64,000 nucleotides of DNA from Phoronis australis (GCA_002633005.1 NMRA01000083.1:587161-651160), one strand, 5' to 3'; positions 7,893 through 64,000 are shown, counted from the first letter of the stretch. Numbers and translations are program-made. The notes: generated by a model from the sequence alone, not told the origin.

Positions 7893-8394
7893 ATGTCATG
7901 TAGTTTTTCTCTCAGTGGAGAAATGCAACAGAGCAAGGAAGGCATGATACCAAGCGGAAATAATCGACAGTTAAGTAAAGATGGGTGTAGTCAGTCTAGT
8001 GCAAGCGCAGGTCCTAGTTGGCCTCGATCTCGACATTTCTTGCCGTCACCGAAACGCAAACGAGCACCATTACCTCCTAGCTTCCATGATCCTGATGATA
8101 TTAAGCTGACTTTGAGTGATGAGGATGACACCGACCATGTGTCAGGTAGTTGTCCAAACCTGCATTCTAGTTCATTGGGTGGGAGTGATCAGTCGCGGTC
8201 TGGACATAGTAACTCTGCAGCTGTGTTAAGGGCGCTAGATGAACTCAGTCCTCGACAGCGTACCTATGCTTTCTCAGTTGCTCACAGTGAAACAGATTGG
8301 ATTTTGAACAAACCCGTGAAGTTATGGACAAGGCAGGAAGTCCAAGTGTGGGCCTCTTCTGTTGGTGTAGAGGATATACTCAAACACCTACCAG
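7893..8394 (+). CDS. Scaffold gene exon c1 (disordered N-terminus + start of SAM1)
   Basis: Acceptor TTTTCAG at 7811, ATG 7893, encodes KPVKLWTRQEVQVWASSVGV (SAM helix 1), donor CAG|GTAATT, phase 1. Confidence 0.85.
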
Positions 8395-11300
8395 GTAATT
8401 ATTTCATTTTTGGACAAGTGTGAAATTACATGTGTTGGGTTTAGATTCTTAGATAAATGTTTTTTTCTTTTTTTAAACAAATGTTTCTGTGCGTCATGAA
8501 TTAGTGCCCCAAGAATGACTGATAACTCAACTGTTGGCTGCATATTGATTTGTTTATTGTGTTCTTTAAAAAGTTTGCTGAAAATTACTGGAGTCAATTA
8601 AAAATCTTATTGTGTTGAAAAACCACTGAACTACATTAAGTCCCTTACAAGAGACTAGCAGGCCCATGGGGAGAAAAATAATATTGGGAGGACACAGATA
8701 TATTGAAACCAGTATCAAAGCCTGGCCTCACCTCTTACAGATGCACCCGTCCTCACCGCTGGTCACCATTACTTAAAACATTCAAGGTTCATTTTGTTAT
8801 GCTCCCCACACTCTAGTTGACACATCATTGGCACATTCTGATGTGTGCTTAACCAACTCACCTCTGCCAGTTTTCTAATGCAACCTACCACAATAAATAA
8901 AAGGCTGGAGGCCAACCCATTGCACTGAAGGTGGATGCATATTTGGGGTATATTGCCTGCTCATGTTCCTCTGATAATGTCACTGCTAAAACATATTGCT
9001 TTCTCTGAAAGATAGGTGTAACTTGGCCTGTAACTTGAGGGTTAATAATGAACTGTTCTATCGACATTTTTCGCTAAACTTGGACATTGTGGTGTTGTCA
9101 TTTGTGTCACAGACTGATATGTTGGAATTTTTAAATTTCCATGGTTAAGGTATGATTATTTTCAATTAAAATTCCTTTCTCCCCTTGCATGTTCAGAAAA
9201 TAGAATTCAAGCAGGCAAAGTAATGGATTTTAATGTTGTAGTTATATGCACACTGTCTCATCATCAGAACACCTGGTGAAATAAAGTTTTATTGATTGGT
9301 GATTAGATTTGTAAAGTGAATCATTTTTGAGGGGCCTGCTGTTCTAAATTATTTTGTATGACATAAATAAGAGGTTAATGCCTTTAATACTTCGTTTAAC
9401 TGATGACGCGAAATGATCTGGCTGCTGGATTTTCATCCTCAATTTTGTTGTATTTGTTTTTACAATATTGTTTTTTAATTTGCTTTAACATATCAAGCAA
9501 TTATCTTAAAAATTTCCGTCTTTTGTCCGTGCTGTGTTTCAAAATATTCAGACTAGTAACCAGATTGCTTAAACAGAACTGTTAAGTTACATTTATGAGA
9601 TTAGTTACATTGTATGCTGAGATATGAAAGAGAAAAAAATCTTGATCTACGACTTTGTCAACGGGGTGTTTTCTTTCACTCTGGTGGCAACATTTCGGTT
9701 TCCTGGAGGAATTTTTTGTTCAATCCCCAGGTGCTCAATAACACCGGTTATTTATGAGCTTGCGGAATGATATCCTTACCACTCAGCATTGTTGATGTTT
9801 ATATTCAATTTATTCAACAATTCAACTTGCTACCCAATCACGTCTCGTTATTTTGTTGTGCAGATATTATGAAGGGTCCTATGCTTATTTCCAAAATCCA
9901 GCAATATTTTGTGAGGAATGATGGTCAATGAGAAATTGTGACGATGACGTATGCCATAAACGGATCAAATAAATGTTAGTTAGCATAATAGTAAGAGACT
10001 ACCTGTTGGACACTACAGTCTTTGTGTAGTTGTACCCCCATTGTCCACCACCACTGTAAGTCACTTGATTGTCTGCCACCAGAGGACAGTGTTGCTGCAC
10101 TGAAGTGCTTCACTTTGCAAGTTCTCATTCCCTCATTACTTGGCAAAATGAGATTTCTCTAAATAATTAGCTTTGTGCTGAAGTCTTTGTAAGGAAAGCT
10201 GGGGTGAGTCCGGCCTCATTTTCGAAAAATAAAAATTTCTCACAAAATCTCACTACTTCATTTTTTAAAATTACTTGAAAAAATAAGAAATGACCAGGAG
10301 TCTTTTTGGGATATGCCATTGATGATTTCACTATAATTATGACAGTGCAGTATGCATTCGAAGTGATCGGGTCAAAAAAGCGGAACTTGCCCCAAGACAA
10401 GTTTTGCCAACCCCTGGGATAACTTTGGCCCGTAGATATATGTACTTGAACTTAAATATAGTTTCATGCTTTGTTCTTTCAGTGACTTGTATTTTCAGCA
10501 CTATGGTGTATCTGAACAAAAAGAAAAGTGACTGTTGTGTTTGTATGTACACATGATGATGCATGTTCATGTACTTGCATGTACTCCTGTGAACTTTGGA
10601 CAACACATTGATACCTGAGAATGGTGGTCTTGGAAGTACCAAAAATAATAAAAAGTTTCTTACGGAAAAATGCAGAACTAGCCCCTGCTAGCGTTGCAAG
10701 AAATATTGTGCTAGCGTTGCAAGAAATATTGTGTGGCATCTTGTAGGGTTCAAGAATATACCGGTAAATGAATACTGTTTCCCATAGAAATAACCTAAGT
10801 GCACATAAAAGAAAATCTAGTGAAACCTTAAGCATTTCACAAGAAGTAAAAACTAAAATAGAAACGGGAAAGTTTGCTACGAGTGAAGAAATTGTACTTT
10901 TGTTTCTTAATCTGATGTGTTCTTAGTAGTTTTTAAAGTCAACAATGAAGAAATTTTTAAGTGAATGTGGGTGATATTTCATGTTGTCGCCACACTCAAG
11001 CGAAACTCACCTTTGGTCACCATGAAATTTCTGTTTGATTATGACCTAGGACCAATATATTACTCCCAGATTATGACATACTTATCTTAACATGCTGTTG
11101 TTGTGTGTCTATAGATGGAGCTGCTTTGGTTTAACAATGATCATGTTTACACTGTCTGGTATTTTTATTAGTGAAATTAATGGAGCGGAAAATGACAGCT
11201 TATTAAACATTGATAAGTTGGGATAGTTGGACTGCGTAATTCTATTTTGTCTGTGAACCTCATCTGTGAGCTTGCTTTTAGGAGGTTTGCAAGGTAGATA

Positions 11301-14300
11301 GGTAGGACATTTCATGTGTTATGAATCTCTCACACCAAACTCATTATTAGAACATCCGATTTCATCTTAGCAGCTTGATGAAAGGGGCTCGGATGGGTGA
11401 AAACGGACCAATTTGAACAAAAACTTGCCTAGAGTGTGATACCGTTGTCGGTATTTTAATCCTGATTGCTGAACTGCATGGTCGGTTCCCATTTGGTGTT
11501 TGTTCCGGTGTCAATTTCTTATGCACGTGATATCATTTGAGACGGAACAAATGCTTGTGTTGTGCGTTGATAATAGTTGAGGTATACGGTATATACTTTC
11601 TTGGTATAGCTGATCAACAAACAAGTAAATTATGATTAAAATAAAACATTAAGAATCCCAGCACAATGTTCTTCTTGAGGTTGTAAAATAAACCTTAGAA
11701 ATTGGTACAAATAGACAAACATTGAACAGAAGTCTGTTACATTGTAGCGAGTAAAGAATGATTTTAGGGTAACATGACACTTTTGTGTCAAGGTAAATAT
11801 GTAAAACAGATTTGTTTAAGTGTAAGAACTATGGTTTATGGTTTTACTCTGTGGTATTTGTGTGCCCAGCCTTGGTTTTCAATAGGTGGCATATCGTATA
11901 TCAGATATTGATACCTTCTCTAAATGTCAGTGATATTTCTTTACATCCAGGAGGGCAAACGTTCGTATGGTCATTAAAAAAGACTCGCTGTTTTTACCGT
12001 GATATAAGTGTCTTGTATTTTAGGGTCTTTGGAAAGTTTCAAGATCTATAAAAACTGGTGACGGTATCAGTATACTGTGTTGATTTTGTCATCATAAAAC
12101 TTCATATCATTTTGCAAAATTAAGGTTTTAGAGAGCTAAATTGAAATTAAAATCTCATAGATCAACCTGCTTTCATTAATAGTCAAAGACTTGCAGCCAT
12201 GTCTTCTAATGTGGGCCTTTGATGTAGTCATACTGGAATTATGCTTAAGTACATGAGAGACAGCAGCTAATTTATAACAGCATGAGAATGTTTGTTATAT
12301 TCACTAGATAACTGTCTCTGTTTACATACCACTTGAGATGCTGGTCTTATTTCAATGTTCTCCCCACTGGCTGGCTCACAGATGAAGGGTGGCCTCCTGC
12401 AGGTCAGGTGAGGTGCTGCATCCTGCTCAAAAGAGACCAAGTCTTCTACATGGCCGCATGATTATCATATCATCTGATGTTCTGCTTTTGTTGTTATGTG
12501 CTTTTATCATTTGTGTTTATTTTCATTTCCTTTCTTGGGTTGTTTTCTTTAAGAAGACTGACATCTGGAACTAGCTGCCACTCATCTCCACAGTTTCATT
12601 TGACTAATTGCCACCTATTCGTTACAACAGCTGTTATATAACCATACTTCTTTATAATAATGACATTAAATCATTTAAGGACACAATGATATGGAAAAGA
12701 AGAATTCCACCAAGTCAAGTTAATTTGTACTTTCTGAACAGCTGCAATTAAACATTGTACAATAAAGTTTGTTTTCTTTTCATTTTAGATCTGGATGGTG
12801 AAGATTTAGTGGACTTTAGTGAGCAAGGGATTGGTGGGTATATACTGACACTGGGCAATCAATGTTGTTTTGGATTTACAGTAACAATGGAAACAGTCTC
12901 TGTAAAGTGGCTGTGATTCAGTGGCTGTAAATGAGTCTTATCACCATTTCAGTTTTTTTAACAACTTCCTCTGCCCTAAATATATTCTTTCTTAAGTAAG
13001 TCCACTATAGATTTATTTATAATTTTTCTTGTATATTCTATTTACTGTGTTACTAATGATTTACATCAATTCCTCTGCCCAGGTCAGCTAGAATCCAACT
13101 TAATAAATCTTACTTTGCCATAAAGCCACATCATTTGATGAAAGCACAAACTAGTGCAAGCTCTAACACTACCAAAAAATGTTTGTCAGCAGTGTCCATG
13201 CTGATCATGTGCATGGTGTTAGTAAATTTCAGCTGTAAAGAAATGAGTGACGTCAACAGACTCTTACAATATGAGAAATATTGAGTCTCTTGTTATCTTA
13301 ACTTATGCTTGATGTCCTCCTCTTGTGTGTCTGTGCACCTGAACTAGTTTGTTTGAAGCTGAATTCACATGGACAAAACTGCCTTATTGGTCTTGTTTAC
13401 AACTAGTGATAACAACTGTGAGGCCATTTCTGTTAGTCAATAACTTTGTGTATACCCACTCAGCTGAATTTGACCACGTTTGGTCCAGTTAGATGGTAAG
13501 TCAACCTATTGGTATTTTTCTCCCAGTGAGCTGAGCCTCCCTTATTAACTGTTGCTCGGTTAACCTGAAATAGACTTAATGATGAGAAAAGAACATCGGG
13601 CTTGTTAAAAATCTTGAAAAAATTGGGACAGCCACCTTTTTCAACATTGAAAGCTTGGAAACCTTTTCTCTTGGAGACCACTGCTACGGAACCTTCACAA
13701 TAAGATTGCTGGTCAGTAACTGTCTCCAGTGTATTCCATGTTCTTACAAAATGGTGATGTGACAACATGGCTGCTAGTGTGGTATGCTCTAAGTGCCATT
13801 TTTACAAGCAAGTTTACGCAAGCTGAGTGTGTAACCTAGCTTGAATTAGGTAGGCCCCAAAAACTTGAACACTATTGAACAAGCTTGAATTTATTGTCCA
13901 TTAGCTTGAACAATATTGGCCAAGCTTGAATAATATTGTCCATGCTTGAATAATATTACCCAAGCTTGAATACTATTGTCCATCCCCATGCCAAATATCG
14001 TATGGATTTTGCCGCAAGCTATTGTTTAACTTGCGAGATCCATCCGACAGGCGTAAGCATTGAATATAACAATACAGGTCGTACGGATATCATACCTTCA
14101 CCTTTTTGAGACCCTAATTCACAACATATGACAAAAACCTCCTGTTTGATTTCAACTCCCCACGACTGCAGTTTCTAAATTGGGGGCTAAATTCAGGTAT
14201 CAATAAAGTCCAGTGCTTATAATTCCTGAGGTCTTTTGTCTGACATCACAGACTCACAGGCCAATTATCTACCACAGTGACTAGGACGTGTACCTGACAA

Positions 14301-17300
14301 CTGAAACCTAACACATCTATTTTGGCTTATTGTTATCACAATCTAATTATACCTAGGGATTGAGCTTTGGACGCACTTTTCTGGGGACATATGTCGAACA
14401 TAAATATATTGCCATGAAGTCATCTGTTACTGGGGGGGGGGGGGTAATTATGCTCTCTGCTTTGTACAAAAGGCCCTAAGATCAGCACTCATGATTAACA
14501 GGCCTCTTCATGTAAAATCCATCAACAAAGCACAAGACTGTTAGCAGTTATTAGTAATGACTGCTAACAACCTGTATATTATTAATAATTTTTGTTTGGT
14601 ATCAACCCCATGCAGTTACTGTTTTGCTTCATTGGTACATAATCTACTTCCATTTAAAAACTGTACATACCTGCAACTGAACAAGTTAAGTCCCCGTTTT
14701 ACAGTTCTTTCTTTTTTTCCAGGAAACTTGGACATAAAAAATATTGCGCTGCACAACAAATTTGAAAAAGGATTACAAAAGCTGCGATCTCATAATCTGA
14801 TGAAAGAAATCAGTCATGTAAGAGCCCCTTGGTTATAAATTTGGAAGATGTGAATTGTCCTCTCCTGATCAATGTTGTCTATATTTTATATGTTATCGAG
14901 GTCATGGTTTCTTTTCAGGCGTAAGGCTCGATAATTGAAATAGACATGTTTATGATACTCTTGAACACATCCCAAAACCTTGGGTTTCATTTGGTTCTAC
15001 TTCTCCATGTTTAAGTGTAATACGACATGCAGAATAGTACAATTTCATTTCATCAAAATTTTGAGTGAACAAGAAGACAGTTTTACTTGATTAATAGAAA
15101 ACCTTATATATTACAACTGTCATCAACAAACACACTATGAAGTTTTGAACCTTTTTTGAAATACAATGAGCATCTGTGAAATGAAAAAAGACAGTTTTAG
15201 TCATTGTTTTTGCTCGAATTTGAGGAAACTTTACCGACAAGTTAATGTTTTGTGAATGTGTGTATTTTATGTTACTTTATTATGGTGATTGATAATACGT
15301 ACTGTCTGTTTCATTGCACTGTTAATGGATCACTGTCTTTTTCAGAAGTCATCTAAATGCATAACGGATATCGATGTAAACAATCAAGCTGGGAGTAAGT
15401 TTCGTTTGAGGCCACAAGATAGTGGGACAGACATTCAAGAGACATTGGGGTCTGGTAGAGGCTGCAGGTGTAGTGCACAAGAAAACAGAACAGCAATGTC
15501 GGGTAGAAGCACACCTGATTATACACGGGTTCAGGTGAGAATAAACTGTGTAGTAGTCACTAATCTCACAAACTGTGTAGTCGTCACCAATCTCACAAAC
15601 TGTGTAGTAGTCACCAATCTCACAAATTGTGTAGTAGTCACCAATCTCACAAACTTGCAATGTTAGAGTTCTCGTAGTGGTTGATCAAAAGAGTTTTGCC
15701 TGACATTGTTTTCAAATGAAGAGAGCACATTGTCAAACCAATCTCATGTGACAACCCAAGGGAATTGACGTAGAAACCCCAAACACAACTGAGTTTCTGA
15801 AGCTTGTCATACTCCAGTTCTGGTCAAAAGCTTAGAACGTGAACTGGTAAGGGGGTTTCCGAAACTGTACTACGTAAAGTGGGCCTTTCCACTCCAGTCT
15901 CTCACACAAGGTTCACGTGAGTGGTGAAAATGGTAGCGTTTAGAAAGATATACGCACTGTCCTCTCAGGGGTCATTTTTGCCAACAGTTAGTTTGTTTCA
16001 TGTATAAAGCGAAAATTGATGTCAAAATACGTTCAGTCTGCCATAAATTGATTAATACAGCGATAAGTGAAGATCTCTTTCCCCTGCATATGCATTATAC
16101 GGTAAGATCTTCCCATTTGGTTTCAACTCCAGCTGATAGTAGTTTTTCATGCTGTAAACAGTTGCTTTAAGTGAGATCAGGATCACACTCAGATCATTCA
16201 GGTGTGAGCTATTTAGTCTGACTGGGTTTTATTCAACTCTGGTTTCCACTTGTCATCAAGGGAGTGATTCTCTGGGTCACCTCTGAGGGTAGTTATTAAT
16301 TCTTATCTGGATCTAAGGCCTCACAGCTCCCGGGCTGTGCTTTCCATTTTTCCGTGGGCCATGAAAACCAATGAAAACCCAAAAATATGAAAAGAGAAGT
16401 AAGAATTAAACCAAGTAATAATGATTTTGTGGAAAACAACTCACTGGATTTGCCTCAGCTGAATGCATATGACGAAAGCGTGGGGAATACTGTCAACATA
16501 TTCAGGCACACTAAATGAAACATGTTTTTGTTTTAATGGAAGGGTGAAAAAACTTCTCAAGAACCTTGTTTATGCTTACAGTATCTGAAAAGACTTTTCT
16601 TCGTTTTCAAGTACCGTGAAAAATAATCAATTTAAAGCATCCTTAAAAGGGGACTGTAGTCAAAATAATGTTGCAGTTAATCAGTTCTAACATACAAATA
16701 AAACTCACATTTGCCTGACTTGCGTGCCAAACTAAAGCCAATTCGAATTCATGGTCAAAACACTGAATTCTGAAAGCGATCGCTGATTGGCTGATGTGTC
16801 AGTGACGTGAACGGCGGGGTCATCGGCTGTTTTACACATTCATTGCTTATGTCATATTTGAAGAGTTTACATCGTAATTTATCATTGTATAAATCGTCCT
16901 TATTTTTTATTTTTTATTGTTTACCACAGTGCTGTAAAAGGTTCGCTATGCCTTTTTGTATGGCACCTGGTTGCTCAAACTCTTCGAAAAAGGCGTCTTC
17001 TAAAGGGATGGTCATCGCATACCATCGCCGGGTTACCCAAGCCTTGGCCCAAAGCTCAGTGTAGATATGGGCCTACAGGTTTTAGCCGATATGGGTAAAA
17101 TATGTACAAATAAAATCTGACTCAAATAAATGTCCTTAAAACTAAGTCATCCTTGAGTAAACCTANCTTTATAATAGTACAGCTGTCATCAACAAACACA
17201 CTATGAAATTTTGAACCTTTTTTGCAATACAATGAGCATCTGTAAAATGAAAAAAGACAGTTTTAGCCATTGTTTTTGCTCAAATTTGAGGAAACTTTAC

Positions 17301-47300: not shown

Positions 47301-50300
47301 TGTTCACTGTATGACTGTTTTATTATCGTAGGCTCATGGGAGGTATTCAATCTTCAAGTGGATGTTGAGAATGTCACATGTGAAGTAGAAGCCAAAGCAA
47401 GGTTGATTGAAGAGCTACGGAAGGACTTACAATCAGACATGTAAGTGTTGGATTTAACATTATTAATTGCAATGGATGTGTTTCATTTTTTGCGCATTAT
47501 ACTTGCATAGGATTTGATTTTTATTCACAAATTTCATGGATAGAAAAATTCATGAGTTTTTGTTATTCTCTAAGTATTGCTACTGTAATTTGTGTAACAA
47601 TTCATGCAAAACTGTACAATTTGTTTGTTACTGTTTCTCATATTTGTGGATGACTTAGCATGGAACTAGTTCCCAGCAAAATAAGATAATGGTAAAAAAG
47701 TGTCATAGACACTCTAAATCTGGAATTTTTAGATGTAAACCATTAGCGTATTAAAGAGTAAAAACCATTAGAGAAAAGTGCACCTGACAGATGTAGCTTA
47801 TTTTAATGGGAATGTATTCTCACACTTGGCTGTCTTTTTCCATTGTGAGGTGGGTTAAAGACACCGTGTGACATTGAATTTAACTGCGAGTAGTTACCGT
47901 CCATGAAATTCACATTGTAGGTCAGACTTGGGTGTAGCAGAAAGACAACACAGATTAAGTGTGCACCAAACATCATTAGTTCGAATCAAACAAAAACTGT
48001 GCTCATTACAGGAAGAGTTGGACATGGCACTTCATAAACAGCAGGTAAGCACTTGCCACCTGGCGATATCACGCGAAAACTTGCGTGACCTCGCTTATCT
48101 CACAAGAATCTTGCTTTATAGAACAGAACCCTAATGCTGTCTTCTTTGATATCTGCGTTTGAAAATTTTTAAAGGGTAATATTTCCTTTAGTCGCCACCT
48201 ATTGGATGGGGACAGCAAAATTAAATTATACCAGGGTTTTGTTAGGTCTTTCTTAACTTACTGTCCTTTGGTATGACACTTAGGGGGTGTGCAAAACTCT
48301 AAGATAGTTGAATGGCTCATTGGATCATTGACGATTTTATTTGACGATTCTGAAGCGATAGAGCTAACCTCAGCTTACCGTCAAGCAAAGGGCAATCCAC
48401 TTGTAACATAGAGAATTAAGTGTCTGGCCTCCCAAGTCTGCAAGCGCATTGAACAAACGGTAGAAATTTATTTTAAAAAATTATGTTAGACCGCAGTACT
48501 TCCAATGTACACTACATTCATCGAAGGCAAGAAATAAAATGAGACCTCAGTCATGCAATCACTTCTAATCGCTGTGTAGCTGCAAAGCTGGAGCAAGGCG
48601 GAAGTAATTATCGGCTGTGGTTACGTACAGACGGGTCTTTTTTGTGCGCCATATTGTCATCAGCTGTTCATGACCATGCACAGAGGGAGAGCTTCTGCCT
48701 TGTTTTAGTTATTGGATATGTGTGTGACTGGATGCTACTCTTAAAGTGGGGCAAGTTGCACTAGGGTTGGCTGTGTGGACGTGACAGTTGTTACATAACA
48801 TTGATGGCATGCTTTACCAGTAAGGAGTTAACTCTGACAAACTGGTCTCATTAGCTTTCCACACCTTGATAACAAGTGAATTGCCATCAAGATAAATTTA
48901 GAGATTACTTGTGATTTATGTGAAGCCAGCCATTAGGAACCTGACTGTCTCAATGTCACAATTAATGGCTTTTCACATTCATTTTACTTGCCACAGCTAG
49001 ATGAATTTTGACGAAAACCATCATGTTTTTGACGTATACTGTCATGCTGATGAAAATATATTTTTAAAACTAAATGGTACAAATACCTCGCATGTGCTAT
49101 GATCTATTGTCTCTCAACTGGGAGTCCGAGCTGTTAGTTTACTGTGTCTTGTTTTGTTGGAAATCTGACAAGCATTCTACATATTGGTTAATGTCTGGTT
49201 GAATCAGAAATCCAGTAATGCGTTTGGTAACGTATGACTCATTGAAGGTGTCAATCTTGGTGGATGACAGCTTAATAACCACATCATCTGTTGGTGATCT
49301 GAGTTACTTAACTGATCCTATGAAAATGCCATTATTAATTAAACTTTCTAGAAACTTTGTGAGTTCCCTCATTTAAAAGTAACATTTCAGGAGACTAGCC
49401 AATTAAAAGCAGTTTAGCGCAATGTTTTTCAAACAAAATTATTTCGCTTTTCTGAGGAACTGTCCGTGATTGTGAACATAAGCACACAGAACAATCTGTT
49501 TGGGCAGACCTCTCTCCTTAAAGAGTACTTCCAGAAGTTGCTATTTCCCTCTCCCTGGCATTTCTATTACTTTTTTCAATTTTCATAAAAATTCACCGAC
49601 CATAAACTTTCTTCCCCAAGTATACTGTTTGAACTTTTGGAAAGTGTTGGTAAATATAGACGATTCCCAAGTTTGTAATTGTGTATTTTGCTGTTGGATG
49701 TTATTCTTTCACATGTGAGTCATTCTTAATTATCTTCAATTTCTTACTTCAGAGTTCTCCCACAAACCTTTCAAGTTTGGTTGATGCTGGCTGTAGTAAA
49801 TCACTGTGTATGTTGGTGCTGCCATCTAGCGACGAAATAACTGTGTCGCCCGGTTGCCATGGTGAAACTGTGATCGACAGTTTCCCAAGTGGCTGTGGTC
49901 TCAAGCAAGGAGATAGGTAAAATGAGGAATGCATTAGTGCTTTGTCTGTTGACTTCATTAAACTGACCACATTTCACTATCTTGGTAGGAATTCTTGAAG
50001 TTGAGACACTGAACTCTTAATGAAAGTCCATATTTTTGATCTTGAAATAAATGAGTGAATATAGATTAAAAACAGTGTCTGAAAATAGGAATGCTTTAAG
50101 TGTCTATATCATGGTCCAAATTTAAGTAAAATATTCTAAAGAATTAAGTAAGTGCACATTTGTATAATGCATTATAAATTTAGAATTTTCTTCTTCAAGT
50201 TGTGAAATGTTTTAAGTTCATCCACCTTTGTCCTAATTACCAAATTTGTCATTTTTCTGTTTTCCAAAGTCTAATTTCCTTGCTGCAAATAAAAGATTTT

Positions 50301-53300
50301 TAACATGATCTTAACAAATGACTATTTTCACTCTCCTTTTTGTCTTTGAAATGGAGCTTCGCTTACACATGCTCTATGTTCATTACGGGACATATGATGA
50401 ACATAAATTGTATTTCACTACTTAATGGTTATATCAGCATATACTGGAGTCATCCTTATCATCTAACCCTCTTTTTCACCATTTGGATGGTTCCTCAATT
50501 CTTGTAAAGTGTTGTTACTTCATACCCAATGACATTGCTTGCTGGGCCTCTCATTAGTGTTTGTGTCGTGACTCATTGGAGATGACATCCTCATTCAACA
50601 TTCAGTTGGCTGTTTTTGTTTTGTGTCTTAGTATTCCTTATAAGGTCAATTTTTGCGTCACTTTTCTGTCAATTTGATTCACTCTTAACACCAGTACAAA
50701 TTTATTTTTGTATTTATTTCAAACACCCCCTACTACAGTAACAATTATCTTTCATGTTCTACTGTATTTATCTTTGACTGCCCATTTTGTTCATTAGGTG
50801 GCGTATTTCTATGCCCAACTTCCCAGAGGCTGTATTTTTGTTTTGTGTCCATTGTTACATTATAATAAATGACCATTTTTACCACATAATGGAAGGTTTT
50901 TGAAATATTGTTTTATGATATCTACACAGTACAAAACAAACTTGGTCTAAGAATGAAATTTTCATTTGTTGAGAAATTTGACAAAGTAAAATTGCATTAC
51001 CATGTTGTGCTAAGTAGTTTAACAATTTTATATTAAATTTACAAGTTTTGCTAAGAGGCTTCTGTCACATACTGATTGTTTTACAGATGAAATTTTTATC
51101 AGTTGTTAAGTTAAAACAACCATTTTATTTGCAGAATTCTGGAAGTGGACAGTATTAACGTGATGCTACTTACCACAGATAAGATAGAAACATTGTTGAA
51201 CAATGACAAACCAATCAGAGTGTTGGTGTTAAGAGATAAGGAGCCAATTAGAGCCTCGATAACAGAGGATGTGAGTTGTTTGAAAGCCGAACTCTCACTG
51301 GCTCATCAACAACTGGAATTTGCTCAAAAAGACATTACAGAACTTCTCCAGAAAAATGAGAAAATATTAACACAGAGTGAAAAGTATGAAAAGGAGCATA
51401 AAATACTGAAGGATCAGGTGGCATCTTTAAATAAGAAGGTATTATATATTTATAAATCTTTACATTCTTGTTACTTTTTCTGACATCTGCTTGTCATTGC
51501 GTGACATCGCAAAGTGTCATGTTGTTCTTTAACACTAATCGCCGATTGCTGAAGTTTGGCAGAAGTTCACCTCGAAAATTATTCTTGGGAACTATTTTTG
51601 AATGTTTATTGAACCGCATTAAGTTGTATTTTTCTTGTCCACTTGCTTAATCACATCACATGTCACTGATAAAGACACTTCCACTGTTTGCTAATGCTTT
51701 TTCTTCCTGCCAGCTCAAACAGTGGGATGATCGTTGGCGAGACCTGCGCTCCACGCTCTTGGACATGAAGTCTTCAGATATCGACGCTTTACCCCTGACT
51801 CTCTCTCCTAAGTCTTGCAGCCAACCTCAGAAAACAAGAGTCAAGGTAGAACACCAGTCCAATGAGTCTGTTTTGTCATCACTAATGGCTTTGCACTCTG
51901 TCACGGTATTCTCACACGCCCAGATATGATTATCTTGTGCTTTTTAACTCTTATTATTGTGCATTGTATTTTTCGTAATAAACACAAAAAGGTATTCTCA
52001 TGACAAACTATGTCATTCTGTAGTTGGTTACTACTGAACAACCCGGTAGTCCTAAGGTCTTTTAAATTCATTTCTAGAGCTCCATCAACAAACAGCATAG
52101 TTAAGATGTTAGCATTCTCAGTAAGTTCCATAGAACATCAAAGTAACTGCCTTGTGGTGATAGTATCAGTCAAGTTATTACATGGAAACGCTGCAATTGT
52201 AAACTTAGAATTTGCAAGTTTGTCTAATTTTTGAATATGAATAGTCAAGCACGTATATTTGAGTAGTAACCGAAATGAAATGCTTAGTACATTGATTAAT
52301 ATTAGAACAATTTATTTGCAAATGTTTAGCGCTACACATACATTTCTTGTCAAACACAACATTATATATAATTCTCGCGTGATAAATCAGGGAGCTGAGG
52401 GGTTATACTGATGCTTGTTTTGTTAAAATTCGTTCATTTTGATCAGAAATTTGGCTATTCTGTGAATTTAAATCAGTTTATGGAAACGCTTCTGTTTATT
52501 CTCTGTTCAATTTCCACGGAAATAATGAAATTGTTTTAAGTTTTATGGCGCAATATGAACACATTACTAAGGTGAATGAAAGCTATTAATAACCAATAAT
52601 TGTTCATTTTCTGTGATATTGTGATATTCCATCAGTACAAGGCAACAAGGAACAGCTGACTATGAGATACAGTGCATGACAAAAGTAATCAACTACAGTG
52701 CATGACAAAAGTAATCAACTACAGTGCATGACAAAAGTAATCAACTACAGTGCATGACAAAAGTAATCAACTACAGTGCATGACAAAAGTAATCAGACAA
52801 TATACCATTTCCTCGTCATCACAGATAATTCCGTTTACAGCAAAAATGACTGGGAATAATATATGACTTGGGCAACTTATTAACATTCCTGTTACTTCCC
52901 CTTCATTCTCGATGATCAGGGGAGACTACTCTGACAATGAATATAGCTTCCTCCCAGCTGTCATGGAGGGGAATTTCAGGTCTTGGAGGAGATTTTTTTC
53001 AAATGAGACTTTCTTATTTAGTCTCAAAGTGTGTGGAATGGTTCCGCACTTTTTATATCCATTTAGGGCCATAAAAATGGTACGAAACAAATCTATACCT
53101 TACCCTAAACGTGGTTTCAATGTTTTGTTTTTATTTCCTCCGTTAGCACTTTCTTAATTAGTAGTTCAATTTTTGCCATGCGGAATATTCCGCAAATTTG
53201 CTTAATATTCTGCAGATTTTTGTGGATTATTACGCAGATTTTGCGGAATATTACGCTGTCAGCGCGGAATATTACGTAGATTTTGCAGAATATTGTGCAC

Positions 53301-56300
53301 TTGCGGAATGTTATGTATATTTTGTGGAATAATAATAATAATTTATTTTTAAAAATCAATGTGACAGTTGCAGAAGAGTTCCACATGTGGAATGGCTCCA
53401 CAAACAGAAAAGTTTTGCTCAGCCCTAAATTTTTTAAATTTTCTGCCGGTCCAATAAACATGAAATACATTCCATTCTCAATAACACTTGACAGTATAAT
53501 GTGTCCTCTCACAGTAATTAATCAATGTGACAGTTGCAGAACCGTTCCGCATGCGGAACGGTTCTGCAAACAGAATAAATTTTGGAGCACTCAAATTTTT
53601 TAATTCTCATCGTGCCCAATAAAGTTAAAATGCATGATTACTTTTGTCTTGTTCTGTATCATCAGTCATGTTATGCCTGGCTTACAGGTTTATTGCAGCT
53701 GTTCTTGTTCTAATGGCATCTCACAAGGAAAATACGACAATATTTCGCATTCAATTTGACCTTTTTATATAGGGTGTCAGTTACCTAGAAACTAATCAAT
53801 AGAATAACATTGTTATTTGTCATTTAATCCATGATGCACAACCCTACTGTGTTCATTTTCATATATGGTATTACCTCTGTAATTCCTCATTTTTAATTTT
53901 GTGTCCTTCATTTTAACATTAGATCTTACAGTAAATGTAGTCTTCCCATCATAGATGATCTGTAGTTATTGCAACAGAAGCCTTCAATGACCAGTTTTTC
54001 CAGTGTTGCTAACAGTTGACAGTTGAAAGTCTGCAGACTTGATCGAGATTTTGAAATTATGTCTTTGTGATCGATTACGTGGGTAATTATGGTCCCTTGA
54101 TTTTCCAAAACTGGGTCATCTTGTTGCGTTGTTGGTGTAATTGGACATAATTGTACCCTTGTGTTTTGGACATGTTTCCTTCTGACATGGCCGTGTTCAG
54201 GAGACCTTATAGTTTCTTGCAAGAACTTGTAGTACCGTGCAATTTTGCATGAGTGAAAGGCGACTGTTTCGCAAACATGCTCTGGAACCTGCTAGCCTAT
54301 CCTATCAAAATGGCTGAGCCACTGAAGTGAGGTTGGAGTGTTGAAATATGGGATTGAAGTCAGTGTTTCCATTCCATAAGTGAAGATATTTCGCAGCGAG
54401 TGCAGGGTAACATCTCACTGTCTACAGAATTCAACCCACGTCAACTGTAGGCGTGTCCACTTCAGTTGTGGGTGTGTCCACTTCTGTTGTGGGCTTGTCT
54501 TCCTTCTGATTTGGACACGTTCAGTTGGGGGTGTGTCCTAATTGTGCTAGCAGTAATCACATGCCCTGGTTGTAGGATCACGAGCTGTCACAGATGAAGA
54601 ACATGCTCACACATCACGCCAGTCACATTGCCAGGCTGCAGGAGTCACTTAGAGCCAAGGTAGTTCAGCTGCACAGTAGCACCCTACAGCACATTCAACT
54701 GCTTTGCATGCATATAATCTAGATGTTTTAATAATATTTCCAGTCATTTGTATGTATTAAGGTGAGGTTAAGAAGTAATACACTGTATAATTTAATTCTT
54801 TTCTGGGTAGTTTTTGTTTGTTTAAGTGTATTTAATGTTTGTGTTGTCTTAATGCACTTCAATACACAAATATAACAATAATATGTAAAAACTAAAACCT
54901 AATGAAACTATTTTGTTTTGGCAAACCCTTCTTGAAAATTGTAATACCATAATAAGTTTTCAAGCTAGTCTTCTGGAAAACCACTTACTTAAAGTTGTCT
55001 TCTAACTGCCCTTCGTCAAACTAGACAATGTTGTTTTGTGCACTTGAACTTCTAAGAAAAGCTTTTTGTGGAATTTTTGTTACAGAAAAATCTCAACAAT
55101 TTTGGACAAAAGTTAAATCCTAAGTTGCCCAATTTCACTTTTCAAGTACTTTTACCATTGCAGCTATGAATGGCCCTGTGTTTTCAAGATAGTGTGTGGT
55201 TGTAGCTTGTACAGTTTTGAAAATGGCAGTTAAAAGCTTTCAGAAGGAGCCACTTGTTTCTTATGAAAATGTGAGGGATTAAAATTGCCAGTTCCATGGA
55301 TGTCCTGTGTCCTTATAACTTTTTAAGATTTGAATGTAATGATTTTTGGAGAATGATATATTTTGGATCATCTAATTTGGTATAATTTTCAAGCTTAAAA
55401 TACAATTTCCCAACATGAACAATGAATTCCAAGTCGAATTGTTGAATATGTTTCAGGATCTTGCCATTGAAGTGTTATACAAGGAGAAAGAGGGTGTCTT
55501 AGCAAAGTTAAAAGGACAGGAGAACTCAGGTACTGTGTTCTTGTTAATAGAAGTCTTGTGATATTGATAATGATTATTGACTTTAGTCCATTATAATGTC
55601 GTATCCTTCGTGATCTGTCCACAACAAGTTGATACTGGAACAACGCGAGTCTTTGCTAAAGTAAATCAGCTGTACAACCAAAAGGTCATGTAGTACCTTA
55701 TCAACAACTGGCAAATATGAGATTTAAACTCGGTAAAAGTGCAATCTGGAAATAGAAAACCAGTAGAATTTTGATTTTTGAGTCTGCCATTAACTGTTTC
55801 AAGTTAACAAGTTCTTTTTAGTAAAACTGAGCAAAAATGGAAGGAACAGGGATAGCAAGTTAACAGTATTAATAACATTGCCAAATTCTGTTTAATATAA
55901 ATGCTCCTGATGAAATCTCAAAAAATGCTTTAATAGTTTTTTAGATAATCATTTTGTTTTCGTTTTAAGCAACAGTGACTTTAGATTTTTTTCATGAAAA
56001 TCATTAAAGTCCTATTCTTGATAACCCCTCATACAAAAGAGGAACATTTTAAAAACAATTTGCTACAACATATTGGAGAAGAGCCCGTGTATAAAGTATG
56101 GTGTCTGAAAGTTTCATATGAATTTGATTGGCCATTTCTGAGATATAGTGTTCTGAACTTAAGCCAAATTTGGACATTTTTCTATGGTCCTACATAACCT
56201 TGAGACTATTGATGGAATAAAAAATCATGTAGTGTACTATACATTTTAGCAGCTTCCAGTGATGTCCATGAACTTTACCTTGGCTCCATCTTTGTCAAAG

Positions 56301-56885
56301 CTGCACAAGTTATTTATATTCATTTGGTGTTCTATTGTGTACAAAAACTGCATTTCATGGCTACTAAACTTTTGTGATGTCGTCTGGAGAAAGCTGTCTG
56401 TGAACATTTGCGGCCAATACTGTGTGAAAATGTCAAAAATTGTTTTGAAAATTGGCGTTTGCTCGTTAAAGGCTTTGTAGTCTTCTTTTCAAACAACTGA
56501 TAGTATTGTGTTTTATTCATGTGGGTAAATTTTCATTTATCTTAGTTATGAAATGATACTATTTAACTCCACTGATAATAAACACCTAGTAGATTTTTAG
56601 ATACATTTTACTTTATTTTAATCCCTTTTAATTTTTATTGTAGCTTTATCCTACGAAGAGTTGGAAGGCGGGGTTCCCTTGTGGGTCAGTTTGAAAAAGT
56701 CAACGAAAGAATCTGTGTTACAAGCTCTCAAAGACAACATTGTTCAAAATGCCAAACAAAAGGCTTACCTGGATAAACTCCTGGCTGTCGTGATTGAACA
56801 GGCACCCCATCTATTGGAGGCTATTGAAACAGATGAACTAGAACAGGTCATGGACGGGTCAACACAAGATGCTGCTTGGTGCTAA
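7893..56885 (+). CDS. Multi-exon gene (23 coding exons, ~1090 aa): SAM-SAM-RA-RA-coiled coil-PDZ-like-coiled coil-FIP/Rab-binding-domain scaffold
   Basis: Exons c1-c23 (listed separately) join with compatible phases and AG/GT (one GC) splice sites into a stop-free 3273-nt frame, counting one copy of each duplicated exon. Domain motifs recognised by eye. Confidence 0.85.
12789..12833 (+). CDS. Scaffold gene exon c2 (SAM1: DLDGEDLVDFSEQGI)
   Basis: TTTTAG acceptor, G|GTGGGT donor, phase 1-1, SAM 'LDGEDL' motif. Confidence 0.8.
13861..13982. repeat. Degenerate ~20-bp minisatellite (CAAGCTTGAATAATATTGTC) x~6
   Basis: Directly visible tandem units. Confidence 0.8.
14723..14817 (+). CDS. Scaffold gene exon c3 (SAM1 C-terminal helix)
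   Basis: TTCCAG acceptor, CAT|GTAAGA donor, phase 1-0; GNLDIKNIALHNKFEKGLQKL. Confidence 0.85.
15543..15655. repeat. 27-bp VNTR x4 (x2 in the other copy at 17596-17654)
   Basis: Unit AAACTGTGTAGTAGTCACCAATCTCAC. Confidence 0.9.
16647..17165 (+). mobile_element. Truncated THAP-encoding DNA transposon end (Kolobok- or P/Harbinger-associated)
   Basis: TTAA then AAGGGGACTGTAGTC; CCAAT/CRE-like motifs near 16785-16810; ATG 16948 gives MPFCMAPGCSNSSKKASSKGMVIAYHR (THAP N-terminus CxAxGCxN...xHR), after which the frame is lost. Confidence 0.6.
20229..20307 (+). CDS. Scaffold gene exon c4, copy 1 (SAM2 start)
   Basis: VRLWTNAMVLEWLDSVGLDKFKHMFK, a canonical SAM start; phase 0-1; G|GTGAGT donor. 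Confidence 0.85.
20647..20697 (+). CDS. Scaffold gene exon c5, copy 1 (SAM2: AKNITGEQLVNIDIKLL)
   Basis: TTTCAG acceptor, G|GTGAGT donor, phase 1-1. Confidence 0.85.
21087..21640. mobile_element. Tc1/mariner-pogo-like non-autonomous element end (also at ~25460-26020)
   Basis: Terminal motif TATATTCGCCCCAATAAGCGCCC...TTATAAGCGCCC with an internal direct repeat; no second end seen. Confidence 0.4.
21917..22172 (+). CDS. Scaffold gene exon c6, copy 1 (SAM2 end + Ser/Pro-rich linker + basic patch)
   Basis: TTGCAG acceptor; GC donor GG|GCAAGT needed for phase 2; DREEILASIYHL. Confidence 0.8.
24594..24672 (+). CDS. Scaffold gene exon c4, copy 2 (probable allele)
   Basis: Matches 20229-20307 with 2 synonymous changes and M>L. 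Confidence 0.8.
25023..25073 (+). CDS. Scaffold gene exon c5, copy 2 (probable allele)
   Basis: Matches 20647-20697 with K>Q. Confidence 0.8.
26289..26544 (+). CDS. Scaffold gene exon c6, copy 2 (probable allele)
   Basis: Same translation as 21917-22172 and the same GC donor. Confidence 0.8.
27116..27216 (+). CDS. Scaffold gene exon c7 (start of RA1: DCVHIWNN)
   Basis: TTACAG acceptor, G|GTAGGT donor, phase 2-1. Confidence 0.8.
27250..28340 (+). mobile_element. Degenerate Helentron/DINE-1-like element with internal ~140-bp repeats
   Basis: Shares CCCC.AGTGG.AATTTTAGTTTTT and TTCATGAAATTTGG motifs with 36510-37030. Confidence 0.6.
28635..28778 (+). CDS. Scaffold gene exon c8 (RA1 core)
   Basis: VKASESTTCAEVINTLLDQHEITDDFNLYYMVE is a Ras-association signature; phase 1-1; A|GTAAGT donor. 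Confidence 0.85.
29432..29544 (+). CDS. Scaffold gene exon c9, copy 1 (RA1 end)
   Basis: DRELGKFECPLFVQQQW...RLELHKR, a typical RA 'R.L...E.PL....W' motif; phase 1-0. Confidence 0.85.
29567..29910 (+). mobile_element. Non-autonomous TTAA-TSD (Kolobok-like) element
   Basis: TTAA|GGTTATGTAGGACC ... GGGCCCACATGACC|TTAA, i.e. imperfect TIRs with TTAA on both sides. Confidence 0.7.
30420..30582 (+). CDS. Scaffold gene exon c10, copy 1 (RA2)
   Basis: GKSFSLSDRSTSEDALKTALRKIRLRHVDATLFCLMQ, RA-like; phase 0-1. Confidence 0.8.
31195..31307 (+). CDS. Scaffold gene exon c9, copy 2 (probable allele)
   Basis: Two synonymous differences from 29432-29544. Confidence 0.8.
31626..32132. mobile_element. 507-bp hAT-like MITE, 13-bp perfect TIR, 6-bp TSD
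   Basis: CAGGGCTTGGAAT...ATTCCAAGCCCTG; TTGTGT at 31620-31625 and 32133-32138; empty site near 29856; subterminal CCGCG repeats. Confidence 0.9.
32601..32763 (+). CDS. Scaffold gene exon c10, copy 2 (probable allele)
   Basis: Two synonymous differences from 30420-30582. Confidence 0.8.
33532..33655 (+). CDS. Scaffold gene exon c11 (RA2 end)
   Basis: TTTACAG acceptor, AG|GTAACA donor, phase 1-2; DITHIEEEDIIVSLPSDCFVLC. Confidence 0.75.
34266..34326 (+). CDS. Scaffold gene exon c12 (Ser-rich, RRNSS)
   Basis: TTGCAG acceptor, ATT|GTAAGT donor, phase 2-0. Confidence 0.75.
34957..35467. mobile_element. PIF/Harbinger-like MITE
   Basis: TIR AGGGCCTTTCATAC / GTATGAAAAGGCCT (13/14 match), TTA flanking both ends, internal GTATGAA and GTTAAC repeats. 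Confidence 0.7.
36510..37030 (+). mobile_element. Young Helentron/DINE-1-like (HINE) element, truncated by n at 37031
   Basis: Follows a T-run; 5' hairpin ATGCGCCCACATA..TATGTGGACGCAT; (GTCC)n microsatellite ~36554-36620; then ~140-bp repeat units with CCTAGTGGC. Confidence 0.7.
37285..37359 (+). CDS. Scaffold gene exon c13 (Ser-rich linker)
   Basis: TTGTAG acceptor, CAG|GTAGGC donor, phase 0-0; GSANSLASSSSGGLSPR. Confidence 0.65.
38033..38137 (+). CDS. Scaffold gene exon c14 (linker)
   Basis: TTTTCAG acceptor, ATG|GTAAGT donor, phase 0-0, open frame. Confidence 0.7.
40636..40822. repeat. 60-bp minisatellite x3
   Basis: Unit contains TGAAGTCACGCTCATGGAATGGACCCTTGGGCC.ACCAGT.TTGTGGCACAATAT. 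Confidence 0.95.
41139..42690 (+). mobile_element. Old Helentron/DINE-1-like element with multiple internal repeat units
   Basis: Degenerate 5' hairpin and GTCATCTCTGTC, plus recurring CCCC(T)AGTGGCAATTT units. Confidence 0.6.
42311..42618. mobile_element. hAT-like MITE nested in the Helentron-like repeat
   Basis: CAGTGGCGGATTTAGG ... CCTGGATCTGCCCCTA imperfect TIRs; GC-rich subterminal GGCCCCCC motifs. Confidence 0.6.
42707..42799 (+). CDS. Scaffold gene exon c15 (coiled-coil start)
   Basis: TTATAG acceptor, CAG|GTAACA donor, phase 0-0; ILKLQTDYQELVIKTRQ. Confidence 0.7.
43457..43574 (+). CDS. Scaffold gene exon c16 (coiled coil)
   Basis: CACTAG acceptor, G|GTATGT donor, phase 0-1; LCECQHKLNETERLVQETELKYRCKLDGLKKQL. 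Confidence 0.7.
44595..45091 (+). mobile_element. Kolobok-like family copy (another degenerate copy ~42830-43290)
   Basis: Internal motif TCATATGAAACTTTCAGATAC..GCTTTGTGCACT and the end CTTGTCAATGAAGGTCCTAAATACCT|TTAA match 29567-29910. Confidence 0.6.
45252..45522 (+). mobile_element. 5' fragment of the Helentron/DINE-1-like element
   Basis: Clearly homologous to 36510-36820 (hairpin, GTCC repeat, GTGCCCCCTAGTGGCAATTTTAG). Confidence 0.75.
47332..47440 (+). CDS. Scaffold gene exon c17 (coiled coil)
   Basis: Phase 1-2, AT|GTAAGT donor; EVEAKARLIEELRKDLQ. Confidence 0.75.
47921..48044 (+). CDS. Scaffold gene exon c18 (coiled coil)
   Basis: TTGTAG acceptor, CAG|GTAAGC donor, phase 2-0. Confidence 0.8.
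49753..49916 (+). CDS. Scaffold gene exon c19 (PDZ-like, N-terminal part)
   Basis: Ends GCGLKQGD-R with AG|GTAAAA, phase 0-2. Confidence 0.8.
51135..51438 (+). CDS. Scaffold gene exon c20 (PDZ-like C-terminal part + coiled coil)
   Basis: The splice junction creates the PDZ signature GLKQGDRILEVDSINV...IETLL..DKPIRVLVLR; phase 2-0. Confidence 0.85.
51714..51845 (+). CDS. Scaffold gene exon c21
   Basis: TGCCAG acceptor, AAG|GTAGAA donor, phase 0-0; LKQWDDRWRDLRSTLLDM. Confidence 0.7.
52668..52795. repeat. Perfect 26-bp minisatellite x4.9
   Basis: Unit TACAGTGCATGACAAAAGTAATCAAC. Confidence 0.95.
53175..53610. repeat. Degenerate GCGGAATATTACGCAGATTTT repeats followed by two palindrome-bearing units
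   Basis: Short repeats 53175-53330; units starting AATCAATGTGACAGTTGCAGAA at ~53354 and ~53520; perfect 36-bp palindrome 53534-53569. Confidence 0.75.
55457..55529 (+). CDS. Scaffold gene exon c22
   Basis: TTTCAG acceptor, G|GTACTG donor, phase 0-1; supplies the phase required by the last exon. Confidence 0.7.
55684..56199 (-). mobile_element. Kolobok-like family copy
   Basis: GGTCATGTAGTACC ... GGTCCTACATAACC termini; internal sequence is the reverse complement of 29567-29910 motifs. Confidence 0.7.
56644..56885 (+). CDS. Scaffold gene terminal exon c23 (FIP-type Rab-binding domain)
   Basis: TKESVLQALKDNIVQNAKQKAYLDKLLAVVIEQAPHLLE matches the Rab11-FIP/ERC RBD pattern (Y[I/L]D.[L/I]...[I/M]E..P.[I/L]L); TAA at 56883-56885. 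Confidence 0.85.
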
Positions 56886-57069
56886 TCAGTAGATAATGTC
56901 GAGGTGCAGAACTTTACCCGATGCCAAATTTGTGCAAGATGTACTAAAATGAGCATCACATCTGAACACAATTATTATGGTGCACGCAAAAACTTTGTTG
57001 TGGCTCTTTACTGCGGGGAGGTAGCATTGCTACTGTAGTTCTTTGCGTAGCGCACGATATGTGGCCAAC

Positions 57070-57075
57070 AATAAA
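57070..57075 (+). terminator. Candidate proximal poly(A) signal of the scaffold gene
   Basis: AATAAA ~185 nt after the stop codon, followed by T/GT-rich sequence. Confidence 0.4.
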
Positions 57076-57206
57076 AATTAAGTTAAGTTTAGTCCCTTAT
57101 TGTCTTGGTTTGAACTGTGTAATGTCACTGTTATTTGTGGCATGGGAATCAACCTGTTGAAATATTGTCAATTTGGGAAGAATAAGTGAATTACAGTAAT
57201 TAAACC

Positions 57207-63600: not shown

Positions 63601-64000
63601 GACAGCTATAGTCCACCCCCGTTCCCAATGACCTATTGACCTCTGTATACTGATTCTTTCTCCCTTTCTTTGCCATTGTTCCATTGGGCGTATTTCCATC
63701 ATCTGCCTTCCGTTTCTCTATAGTCCGCGTGCCTTCCTGGATATCGTGAGTTATGAGATGGTCATACATGTTCTGGTATGTGTCACACTTGAACACTAGA
63801 CACACGGAACATGGCACGGAGCCATCAGGCTGAGTATGGTTATCCAACAGGTGCTTAGCCAGCCACACAGGGCCCTGTGACACTTCCGAACAGAAGCTAC
63901 ACTGGTAACTCAAAATGCTCCGCGACGAAATTCCCTCTGGCCGCAATGGCTGCTCAGTACTTACGCCCCCGGTGGTATCATTTGCAACAAGTGACTGATT
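60626..64000 (-). CDS. ZNF423: ZNF423/ZNF521 (Oaz)-family multi-C2H2 zinc-finger transcription factor, 5'-partial
   Basis: >1100-codon uninterrupted frame open to the window end. Family-diagnostic fingers: [65 protein letters not shown] and [10 protein letters not shown]. Confidence 0.93.
   Translation of the reverse strand, partial: [1124 protein letters not shown]

Follow-up and report, generated by a model that had tools for sequence, protein, structure and literature searches.

Class I Rab11-FIPs carry an N-terminal C2 domain and class II Rab11-FIPs carry EF-hands; ERC1 is a binder of Rab6, and ERC proteins have a C-terminal ligand for the PDZ domain of RIM. Afadin-type proteins have FHA and DIL domains after their Ras-association (RA) domain or domains. 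To our knowledge, none of the known proteins with a FIP domain (Rab11-FIP1-5 and ERC1) carries a Ras-binding module, and ERC1 is without SAM, RA and PDZ domains. In this work we describe a gene of Phoronis australis contained in a stretch of 64,000 nucleotides (GCA_002633005.1 NMRA01000083.1:587161-651160), which we call the window and from whose first letter all positions are counted. Its predicted product, referred to below as the scaffold, has two SAM domains, two RA domains, a Ser-rich linker, coiled coils, a PDZ domain and a FIP-like Rab-binding domain in one chain. All these parts are known domains; as judged from the sequence, the architecture is new.

Two further systems are relevant here. 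The C-RASSF proteins (RASSF1-6) have one RA domain and a C-terminal SARAH domain (PMC4695899), while RIN1 is both a Ras effector and a guanine nucleotide exchange factor (GEF) for Rab5, which links Ras to Rab in a single chain (PMC3520888).

Gene structure and transcript support

A splice-site script joined 25 phase-compatible coding exons into an open frame of 3546 nucleotides that encodes 1181 amino acids (aa) and has a single, terminal stop codon (Table 1). A first-pass annotation, made by a model from the sequence, had given the gene the same limits, which stand, with 23 exons and about 1090 aa, both of which fall short. The introns are GT-AG throughout, save intron 7, which is GC-AG. Its GC donor lies after exon 7 at 22173-22174, with a copy at 26545-26546, and the joint 26543>27115 was read in RNA runs X1 and X2.

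The RNA evidence consists of raw reads with the same species label, from three runs (X1 to X3) on positions 14600-34500 and from two runs on 37200-57100. Junctions with RNA support number at least six in the first of these stretches and at least ten in the second, where the chain is supported at every junction and runs unbroken from exon 16 through exon 25, the exon of the FIP-like domain. Exon 4 was identified from the reads. The six joints of the first stretch are present in X1 and X2 and none is listed in X3, so expression differs among the samples, whose identity is coded. Junctions 1>2, 2>3 and 13>14 span outside any single mapped stretch, and junctions 3>4, 6>7, 11>12, 12>13 and 15>16 lie inside the mapped stretches and are absent among the RNA joints listed. 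The interval from RA2 to exon 16 has no continuous read chain among these joints, and we read it as part of one gene because the frame is open and the homologues are collinear single chains. The reads do not split the model into two genes, one of the outcomes that would have spoken against the first-pass annotation. The scaffold gene is real and spliced, and the evidence supports a single gene.

Two side observations concern the extent of the transcript. Intron 15 shows a low stranded read depth at 39192-41183, where a small alternative exon is possible, and a scan of this intron for extra exons gave weak candidates only. An acceptor site upstream of the ATG (7812-7892) points to a start of exon 1 near 7812, with more 5' exons further upstream.

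Domain architecture and its conservation

A phmmer search with the last exon returned 19 proteins, comprising seven long members, nine short last-exon fragments and three unrelated sequences (P0007, P0012 and P0015), which were dropped for their absent or marginal BLAST match to the model. The long members belong to Branchiostoma, Ptychodera, Acanthaster, Strongylocentrotus, Apostichopus, Tubulanus and Mizuhopecten, and a profile search adds Paralvinella. The model aligns with amphioxus proteins over aa 140-1165 as a collinear single chain, with 27-28% identity and E-values of 4e-78 to 7e-80. Amphioxus, Ptychodera, three echinoderms and the annelid Paralvinella each have the same layout within a single protein, so that the architecture, which the first-pass annotation had proposed to search for across Metazoa, is conserved across invertebrate phyla. 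In Pfam scans the homologues show two SAM stretches; of the seven long ones, four show two RA stretches and Apostichopus shows one, Tubulanus and Mizuhopecten having none, and the Paralvinella protein gives one weak RA match together with SAM, PDZ and RBD-FIP.

The members are annotated as "uncharacterized", "hypothetical" or with generic names. No characterised orthologue appeared among the names returned or in the literature searched, as the first-pass annotation had supposed. No literature was found on PF09457, on six locus names of the family or on EEFC with PDZ, and nothing on such a protein was found among the matches listed for the domain combination and FIP evolution, in a search whose scope lay mostly outside subscription papers and supplements. 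A word-indexed search with exon 25 gave no homologue among 187 candidates. The profile search gave at least two and the amphioxus search at least five matches, which do not imply that flies, worms or vertebrates lack the family. A restriction of the family to invertebrates is unproven: the nearest Atlas neighbours of the full Ptychodera protein are three unnamed chordate SAM clusters (0.83-0.84; 589, 922 and 1010 aa), one of them auto-named SAMHD1, which we take as a lead only. A tree of C-terminal sequences (11 rows) did not place the Phoronis protein, with support of 61/63 and long branches. One Mizuhopecten protein, P0027, is named X-box-binding protein 1 and joins XBP1 to the SAM-PDZ-RBD part of the family, which is probably a gene-model fusion.

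Family profiles built from six homologues, with the model sequence left out, recovered SAM1 (weakly), SAM2, RA1, RA2, PDZ and RBD on the model, all in order (Table 1). This is the order that had been proposed from the first reading of the sequence: SAM, SAM, RA, RA, Ser-rich linker, coiled coil, PDZ-like, coiled coil and FIP-RBD. Pfam scans of single exons identified RA, SAM_2 and RBD-FIP, with no match to PDZ and none to SAM1 on the exon pieces. The character of aa 705-849 is predicted to be that of a coiled coil.

Regarding the RA pair, a homologue-based profile search of the PDB with RA1 found afadin (E 8.2e-6) and RADIL (E 2.2e-4). In the amphioxus model the RA1 fold matches the RA domain of Rasip1 (Z score 13.2, root-mean-square deviation, rmsd, 2.7, 92 residues aligned), afadin (Z 12.8 and 12.4), RADIL (Z 12.4) and also PLC-epsilon. 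The AlphaFold model of amphioxus RA1-RA2 has a predicted local distance difference test (pLDDT) value of 92.6 and a predicted template modelling (pTM) score of 0.84; it consists of two ubiquitin-like folds with a 4-residue link, has RA domains as its best structural matches, and suggests that RA1 and RA2 pack on each other. Foldseek on the pair returned the tandem ubiquitin-like proteins ISG15, USP7 and talin at rmsd 6-14, and no solved tandem of the same packing.

The two RA domains differ in their basic residues. RA1 has a net charge of -4 to -9 in all seven sequences compared, and none of them has Lys or Arg at the end of helix 1, where Ser, Gln or Glu replaces the Lys or Arg of afadin and RADIL. 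RA2 is net acidic in five of the seven sequences and has Lys in strand 1 (7/7), in strand 2 (7/7) and at the end of helix 1 (6/7; Arg/Lys in the model), with all three basic positions kept in the model and five of six homologues. CRAF residues 59 and 84 are those with which we compare them, and we take these to lie in strand 1 and helix 1. On the RA/RB side, binding residues are conserved at these two positions only, and both are basic (PMC8163975). RA2 is the predicted GTPase binder of the pair because it keeps the basic hotspots that RA1 lacks; the earlier expectation that the RA domains bind Ras/Rap is thus favoured by the canonical residues of RA2 and not by RA1. Caution is called for, since both RA domains of Canoe bind Rap1 with the assistance of N-terminal helices (bioRxiv 2024.07.29.605598) and the scaffold family has, directly before RA1, a conserved basic segment. 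This segment is kept in the model and five of six homologues and is missing in the annelid.

As for the C-terminus, exon 25 matches RBD-FIP (PF09457) with 23.1 bits against a Pfam cut-off of 23.3, and RBD-FIP is the top Pfam family in the nine short homologous fragments (9/9), all below the cut-off. Among the Atlas matches of exon 25 are two RBD-FIP clusters, one at 0.91 that shares 186 features with it and the other, RB6I2 (ERC1), at 0.90 with 171 in common; a Cast cluster reaches only 0.78. In a profile search of the PDB, chains of FIP1/2/3 account for 9 of 15 rows, without gaps, with a best E of 0.0088. These three kinds of search agree on RBD-FIP, each weakly. At the place of the FIP YID/YMD motif, whose mutation blocks the binding of Rab11a (PMC3279423), the family has Y-L-D. 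Tyr, Leu and Asp are each present in 18 of the 19 rows, and the neighbouring x-P-x-L-L has its Pro in all 19; Y-x-D and x-P-x-L-L are kept across at least five phyla, while the nearby coiled coils drift. The single-chain model of the exon-25 domain is one long helix (residues 21-69, pLDDT 78, pTM 0.45) with no Foldseek match, and a homodimer prediction scored 0.30 against a mark of 0.32, which carries no weight either way. The FIP assignment is weak, although consistent: the FIP-RBD named in the first-pass annotation is favoured by the motif and, weakly, by three kinds of search, and falls just under the Pfam cut-off without a fold match. Neither the RA nor the RBD regions clearly fail profile search or structure prediction, although the RBD lies just under its cut-off and gave no match in Foldseek.

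Canonical PDZ domains have a carboxylate-binding loop with the motif G-x-G-F. The family profile matches PDZ structures with E-values of 7e-10 to 1e-5, and the junctions on both sides of exon 20 are confirmed by RNA. The loop is absent in the Phoronis protein; amphioxus has GYGF, and Ptychodera and Apostichopus have GY-x-F. The PDZ-like domain seen at first reading is accordingly present, with a degenerate loop in this member. The tail of the protein had been overlooked in that reading, as had the basic helix before RA1. Among 19 C-termini, 17 end in Cys, 14 in aromatic-Cys and 11 in acid-aromatic-Cys; EEFC occurs in eight, including most full-length homologues, and EEWC, the exact D/E-D/E/H-W-C pattern, in one. 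This pattern is the CaV2 ligand read by the PDZ domains of RIM and Mint (PMC7456537, PMC11405698), in which Trp is the most invariant residue (PMC11405698). By its sequence, the conserved tail resembles this ligand and is a candidate for the same kind of binding.

Table 1. Features of the scaffold gene and of its duplicated blocks, with positions in the window.
Feature	Positions	Strand	Basis
Whole gene	7893-56885	+	Open frame, splice sites; at least 16 of 24 junctions in RNA
Coding exons 1-7	7893-8394, 12789-12833, 14723-14817, 15346-15534, 20229-20307, 20647-20697, 21917-22172 (GC donor)	+	
Coding exons 8-14	27116-27216, 28635-28778, 29432-29544, 30420-30582, 33532-33655, 34266-34326, 37285-37359	+	
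Coding exons 15-20	38033-38137, 42707-42799, 43457-43574, 47332-47440, 47921-48044, 49753-49916	+	
Coding exons 21-25	51135-51438, 51714-51845, 54576-54659, 55457-55529, 56644-56885	+	
SAM1, aa 140-204, exons 1-3, degenerate here	8310-14787	+	Family profile 9.2 bits, independent E-value 6.5e-5
SAM2, aa 277-342, mostly exons 5-7	15532-21981	+	Pfam SAM_2 E 0.0011 on exon 5; family profile 84.5 bits
Lys-rich, likely amphipathic segment, about aa 400-425, exons 7-8	22150-27176	+	Directly before RA1
RA1, aa 427-518, exons 8-10, afadin/RADIL/RASIP1 type, acidic	27177-29523	+	Pfam RA E 7.3e-7 on exon 9; family profile 68 bits
RA2, aa 521-605, exons 10-12	29530-33608	+	Pfam RA E 0.026 on exon 11; family profile 69 bits; hhalign to family 97.5%
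Ser-rich linker, aa 620-700	33651-38134	+	26% Ser
Central predicted coiled coil, aa 705-849, exons 16-19	42716-48044	+	Family profile 21 bits on aa 770-849
PDZ, aa ~862-940, exons 20-21	49789-51243	+	Family profile 30 bits on aa 887-940 (last two thirds)
C-terminal predicted coiled coil, aa 947-1097, exons 21-24	51262-55516	+	Family profile 26 bits; weak coiled-coil matches
FIP-like Rab-binding domain and short preceding helix, aa 1112-1171, exon 25	56673-56852	+	Pfam RBD-FIP E 6.8e-5 on exon 25; family profile 66 bits
Aromatic-Cys tail (AAWC), candidate PDZ ligand	56871-56885	+	Tally over 19 C-termini
Second copy, exon 4 block	17169-18619	+	90.5% to 15104-16631; begins 3 bases past N at 17166
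Second copy, exons 5-7 block	22323-26611	+	92-96% to 18864-22239; after N at 22240
Second copy, exons 10-11 block	30942-33023	+	92-97% to 29182-30843; after N at 30844

Proposed mechanism and rival explanations

We propose that the scaffold is an adaptor between Ras/Rap and Rab11, predicted to bind Ras/Rap-GTP through RA2 and Rab11-family-GTP through its FIP-like end, a reading whose chances we consider evenly balanced. Such a protein would be recruited to recycling or exocytic membranes that carry the two GTPases in their active state; reference titles in PMC3520888 indicate that palmitoylated Ras transits recycling endosomes. The coiled coils and the FIP-like helix may dimerise the chain, as in Rab11-FIPs, with the Y-L-D motif contacting Rab11 and RA2 pairing with the switch I strand of Ras/Rap. 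The acidic RA1, packed on RA2, could be structural or bind something else, and the basic segment before it may aid the binding of membrane or GTPase. Links with other scaffolds would be made by the SAM domains and by the aromatic-Cys tail, the latter binding the PDZ domain of a partner. The scaffold's own PDZ domain may select cargo in those members that keep the loop, and probably does not do so in the Phoronis member.

A broader and more tentative reading, to which we give somewhat less than an even chance, is that the family represents an ancient bilaterian class of FIP-domain proteins that are effectors of both Ras/Rap and Rab11. Its members would be non-enzymatic coincidence detectors that dimerise on membranes carrying both GTPases and offer their tail to PDZ scaffolds of the RIM/Mint type, and they may include unnamed vertebrate proteins; the class would have stayed unnoticed because the RBD of all members scanned narrowly misses the Pfam cut-off. 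More generally, a conserved chain that joins an RA pair to a FIP-like domain would connect Ras/Rap activity physically and directly with Rab11 recycling, would thereby tie growth signalling to membrane recycling, and would add to the FIP family, besides classes I and II, a further group in amphioxus, hemichordates, echinoderms and annelids.

Several results weigh against the adaptor. On the Rab side, all RBD-FIP scores lie under the Pfam cut-off; the domain was absent at E 0.01 in six of seven full-length homologues and at E 0.1 in two further amphioxus proteins; exon 25 alone matched nothing in the PDB by sequence or Foldseek; and an unrelated dehydrogenase took rank 2 in the PDB profile search. 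Gln (18/19) replaces a Leu of FIP3 three residues before the Tyr. The same Pfam domain is found in ERC1/RB6I2, hence the identity of the Rab would not be fixed by a FIP-like domain. On the Ras side, RA1 and not RA2 most resembles the known Rap binders, and RA2 matches solved RA domains with Z ~9-10, tied with other ubiquitin-like folds. The annelid RA2 is without the helix-1 Lys, and an RA domain is absent from the models of Tubulanus and the scallop. Moreover, weak Ras binding, up to 500 uM, is common among RA domains (PMC8163975).

The first of the alternatives, which we regard as unlikely, is an ERC1/ELKS-like protein whose FIP-like domain binds Rab6 or another Rab, whose tail docks on the PDZ domain of RIM or Mint, and which brings Ras/Rap input to sites of synaptic or cortical exocytosis. 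The Atlas rank of the RB6I2 (ERC1) cluster, second at 0.90, the tail close to the CaV2 ligand (aromatic-Cys 14/19, acid-aromatic-Cys 11/19) and the expression in X1 and X2, not X3, are in its favour. However, most full-length members have Phe at position -1 where CaV2 has Trp, the Phoronis tail has the Trp with Ala at -2 and -3, no Pfam scan gave a Cast domain, and Y-L-D matches the YID/YMD of the FIPs.

An afadin-like Rap/Ras scaffold is, to us, improbable to the same degree. Its C-terminal helix would only dimerise and bind no Rab, the likeness to FIP being a relic or a chance coiled-coil match. The sub-threshold RBD scores, the Gln in place of Leu and the missing fold match speak for it, and RA1 is nearest to the RA domains of afadin, RADIL and RASIP1. 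Afadin has a PDZ domain, and its layout likewise includes a tandem RA (bioRxiv 2024.07.29.605598). It is opposed by the conservation of Y-x-D and x-P-x-L-L in at least five phyla, by the agreement of three kinds of search on RBD-FIP, and by Pfam scans without FHA or DIL.

Much less probable is a Rab effector whose two RA domains form a rigid ubiquitin-like unit with a structural role, without binding GTPases of the Ras family. The acidity of RA1 in all seven sequences (-4 to -9) and of RA2 in five, the mutual packing suggested by the pTM of 0.84, and the absence of RA in the nemertean and scallop models would agree with it; the three basic positions that the model and five of six homologues keep on the usual binding face of RA2 would not, nor would the basic segment before RA1, given that an N-terminal helix can aid Rap1 binding in Canoe. 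Finally, an artefact made of two neighbouring genes or of repeats created by the assembly is scarcely credible, for although three duplicated blocks adjoin N gaps inside the gene and junctions 11>12, 12>13 and 15>16 are absent among the RNA joints listed, with 13>14 spanning the mapped stretches, the frame is open and phase-compatible, collinear single proteins exist in other phyla, no listed joint connects a copy to its twin, and the two RA and two SAM domains differ in sequence.

The duplicated blocks are as follows. Self-comparison of the window revealed three internal duplications with 90-97% identity, each adjoining one of four single N bases, by which six exons (4, 5-7 and 10-11) are present twice, a point that the first-pass annotation does not mention. 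The exon 4 copy (17402-17587) has an open frame and is one codon shorter; the copies of exons 5-7 (24594-24672, 25023-25073 and 26289-26544) differ at 3/79, 1/51 and 0/256 bases; those of exons 10-11 lie at 31195-31307 and 32601-32763. The RNA joints listed use one copy per exon, which for exons 5-7 is the second, and none joins an exon copy to its twin. The blocks are likely the other haplotype, left uncollapsed in the assembly. A true tandem duplication of exons is unlikely, given that every block adjoins an N and one copy has a private insertion; that the second SAM or RA is an assembly duplicate is ruled out by the family profiles, in which the two SAMs and the two RAs are different sequences.

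Other features of the window were also noted. A 507-bp insertion (31626-32132), present only in the second copy of the exon 10-11 block, ends in 13-bp terminal inverted repeats, is flanked by a 6-bp duplication and is likely a miniature inverted-repeat transposable element; read depth over the stretch peaks at it, mostly through reads that continue into unlike sequence. An insertion of about 900 bp (22898-23794) distinguishes the second copy of the block with exons 5-7 from the first, which is without it. Copies of a repeat family with 68-80% identity lie at 36510-36818, 45252-45522, 27697-27963 and 41326-41780, and short tandem arrays near 15550-15650, 40636-40822 and 52670-52795. On the minus strand, positions 60629-64000 hold a large zinc-finger gene convergent with the scaffold gene; its open frame spans at least 1124 aa, contains 22 C2H2 zinc-finger patterns and runs off the end of the window.

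Comparison with known systems

Compared with the described families, the scaffold would be filed in none of the class I/II Rab11-FIPs, the afadin-type proteins, C-RASSF or ERC1, because on sequence it does not carry their class markers. The FIP classes are treated in PMC5991966. With Rab11-FIP1-5 (Rip11, FIP2 and RCP; FIP3 and FIP4) it shares a C-terminal helix that aligns without gaps to the RBD of FIP3 and keeps Y-x-D and P-x-L-L, with a coiled coil before it. Unlike them, it carries SAM, SAM, RA, RA and PDZ, has Gln for a conserved Leu, and extends some 20 residues after the RBD-like part, whereas the FIP3 match reaches residue 791 of 793; neither C2 nor EF-hand was found in Pfam scans of 10 full-length homologues, with which the model is collinear.

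ERC1/ELKS/Rab6IP2 likewise combines long coiled coils with an RBD-FIP-like end (Atlas 0.90). The difference is that the Pfam scans of full-length homologues gave no Cast domain (PF10174) and that in the scaffold the RBD-like domain and the tail are on one exon. With afadin/Canoe, RADIL and RASIP1, the scaffold has in common the RA1 subtype, by sequence and by fold, the tandem RA as in afadin (bioRxiv 2024.07.29.605598) and a PDZ domain downstream. In contrast to these proteins, its RA domains stand 4 residues apart and are followed by a Ser-rich linker and a coiled coil, its RA1 has no helix-1 Lys/Arg, SAM domains and a FIP-like end are added, and FHA and DIL are absent from the Pfam scans.

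The C-RASSF proteins differ in the number of RA domains, of which the scaffold has two, and no SARAH was found for exon 25 (E up to 1) or for the fragments (E up to 0.1). Drosophila Rau, a protein with two RA domains, was also considered, and no paper on it appeared among the matches listed. Neurabin/spinophilin resembles the scaffold in having SAM, PDZ and coiled coil in one chain; it takes rank 4 in the Atlas (0.82), and the neurabin SAM is among the PDB matches. Its domain order is different, and no RA or RBD-FIP is listed for that cluster. RIN1 is the precedent for a link between Ras and Rab in a single chain. It activates Rab5 enzymatically, whereas the scaffold, which showed no GEF domain in any scan, would be a passive effector of both GTPases.

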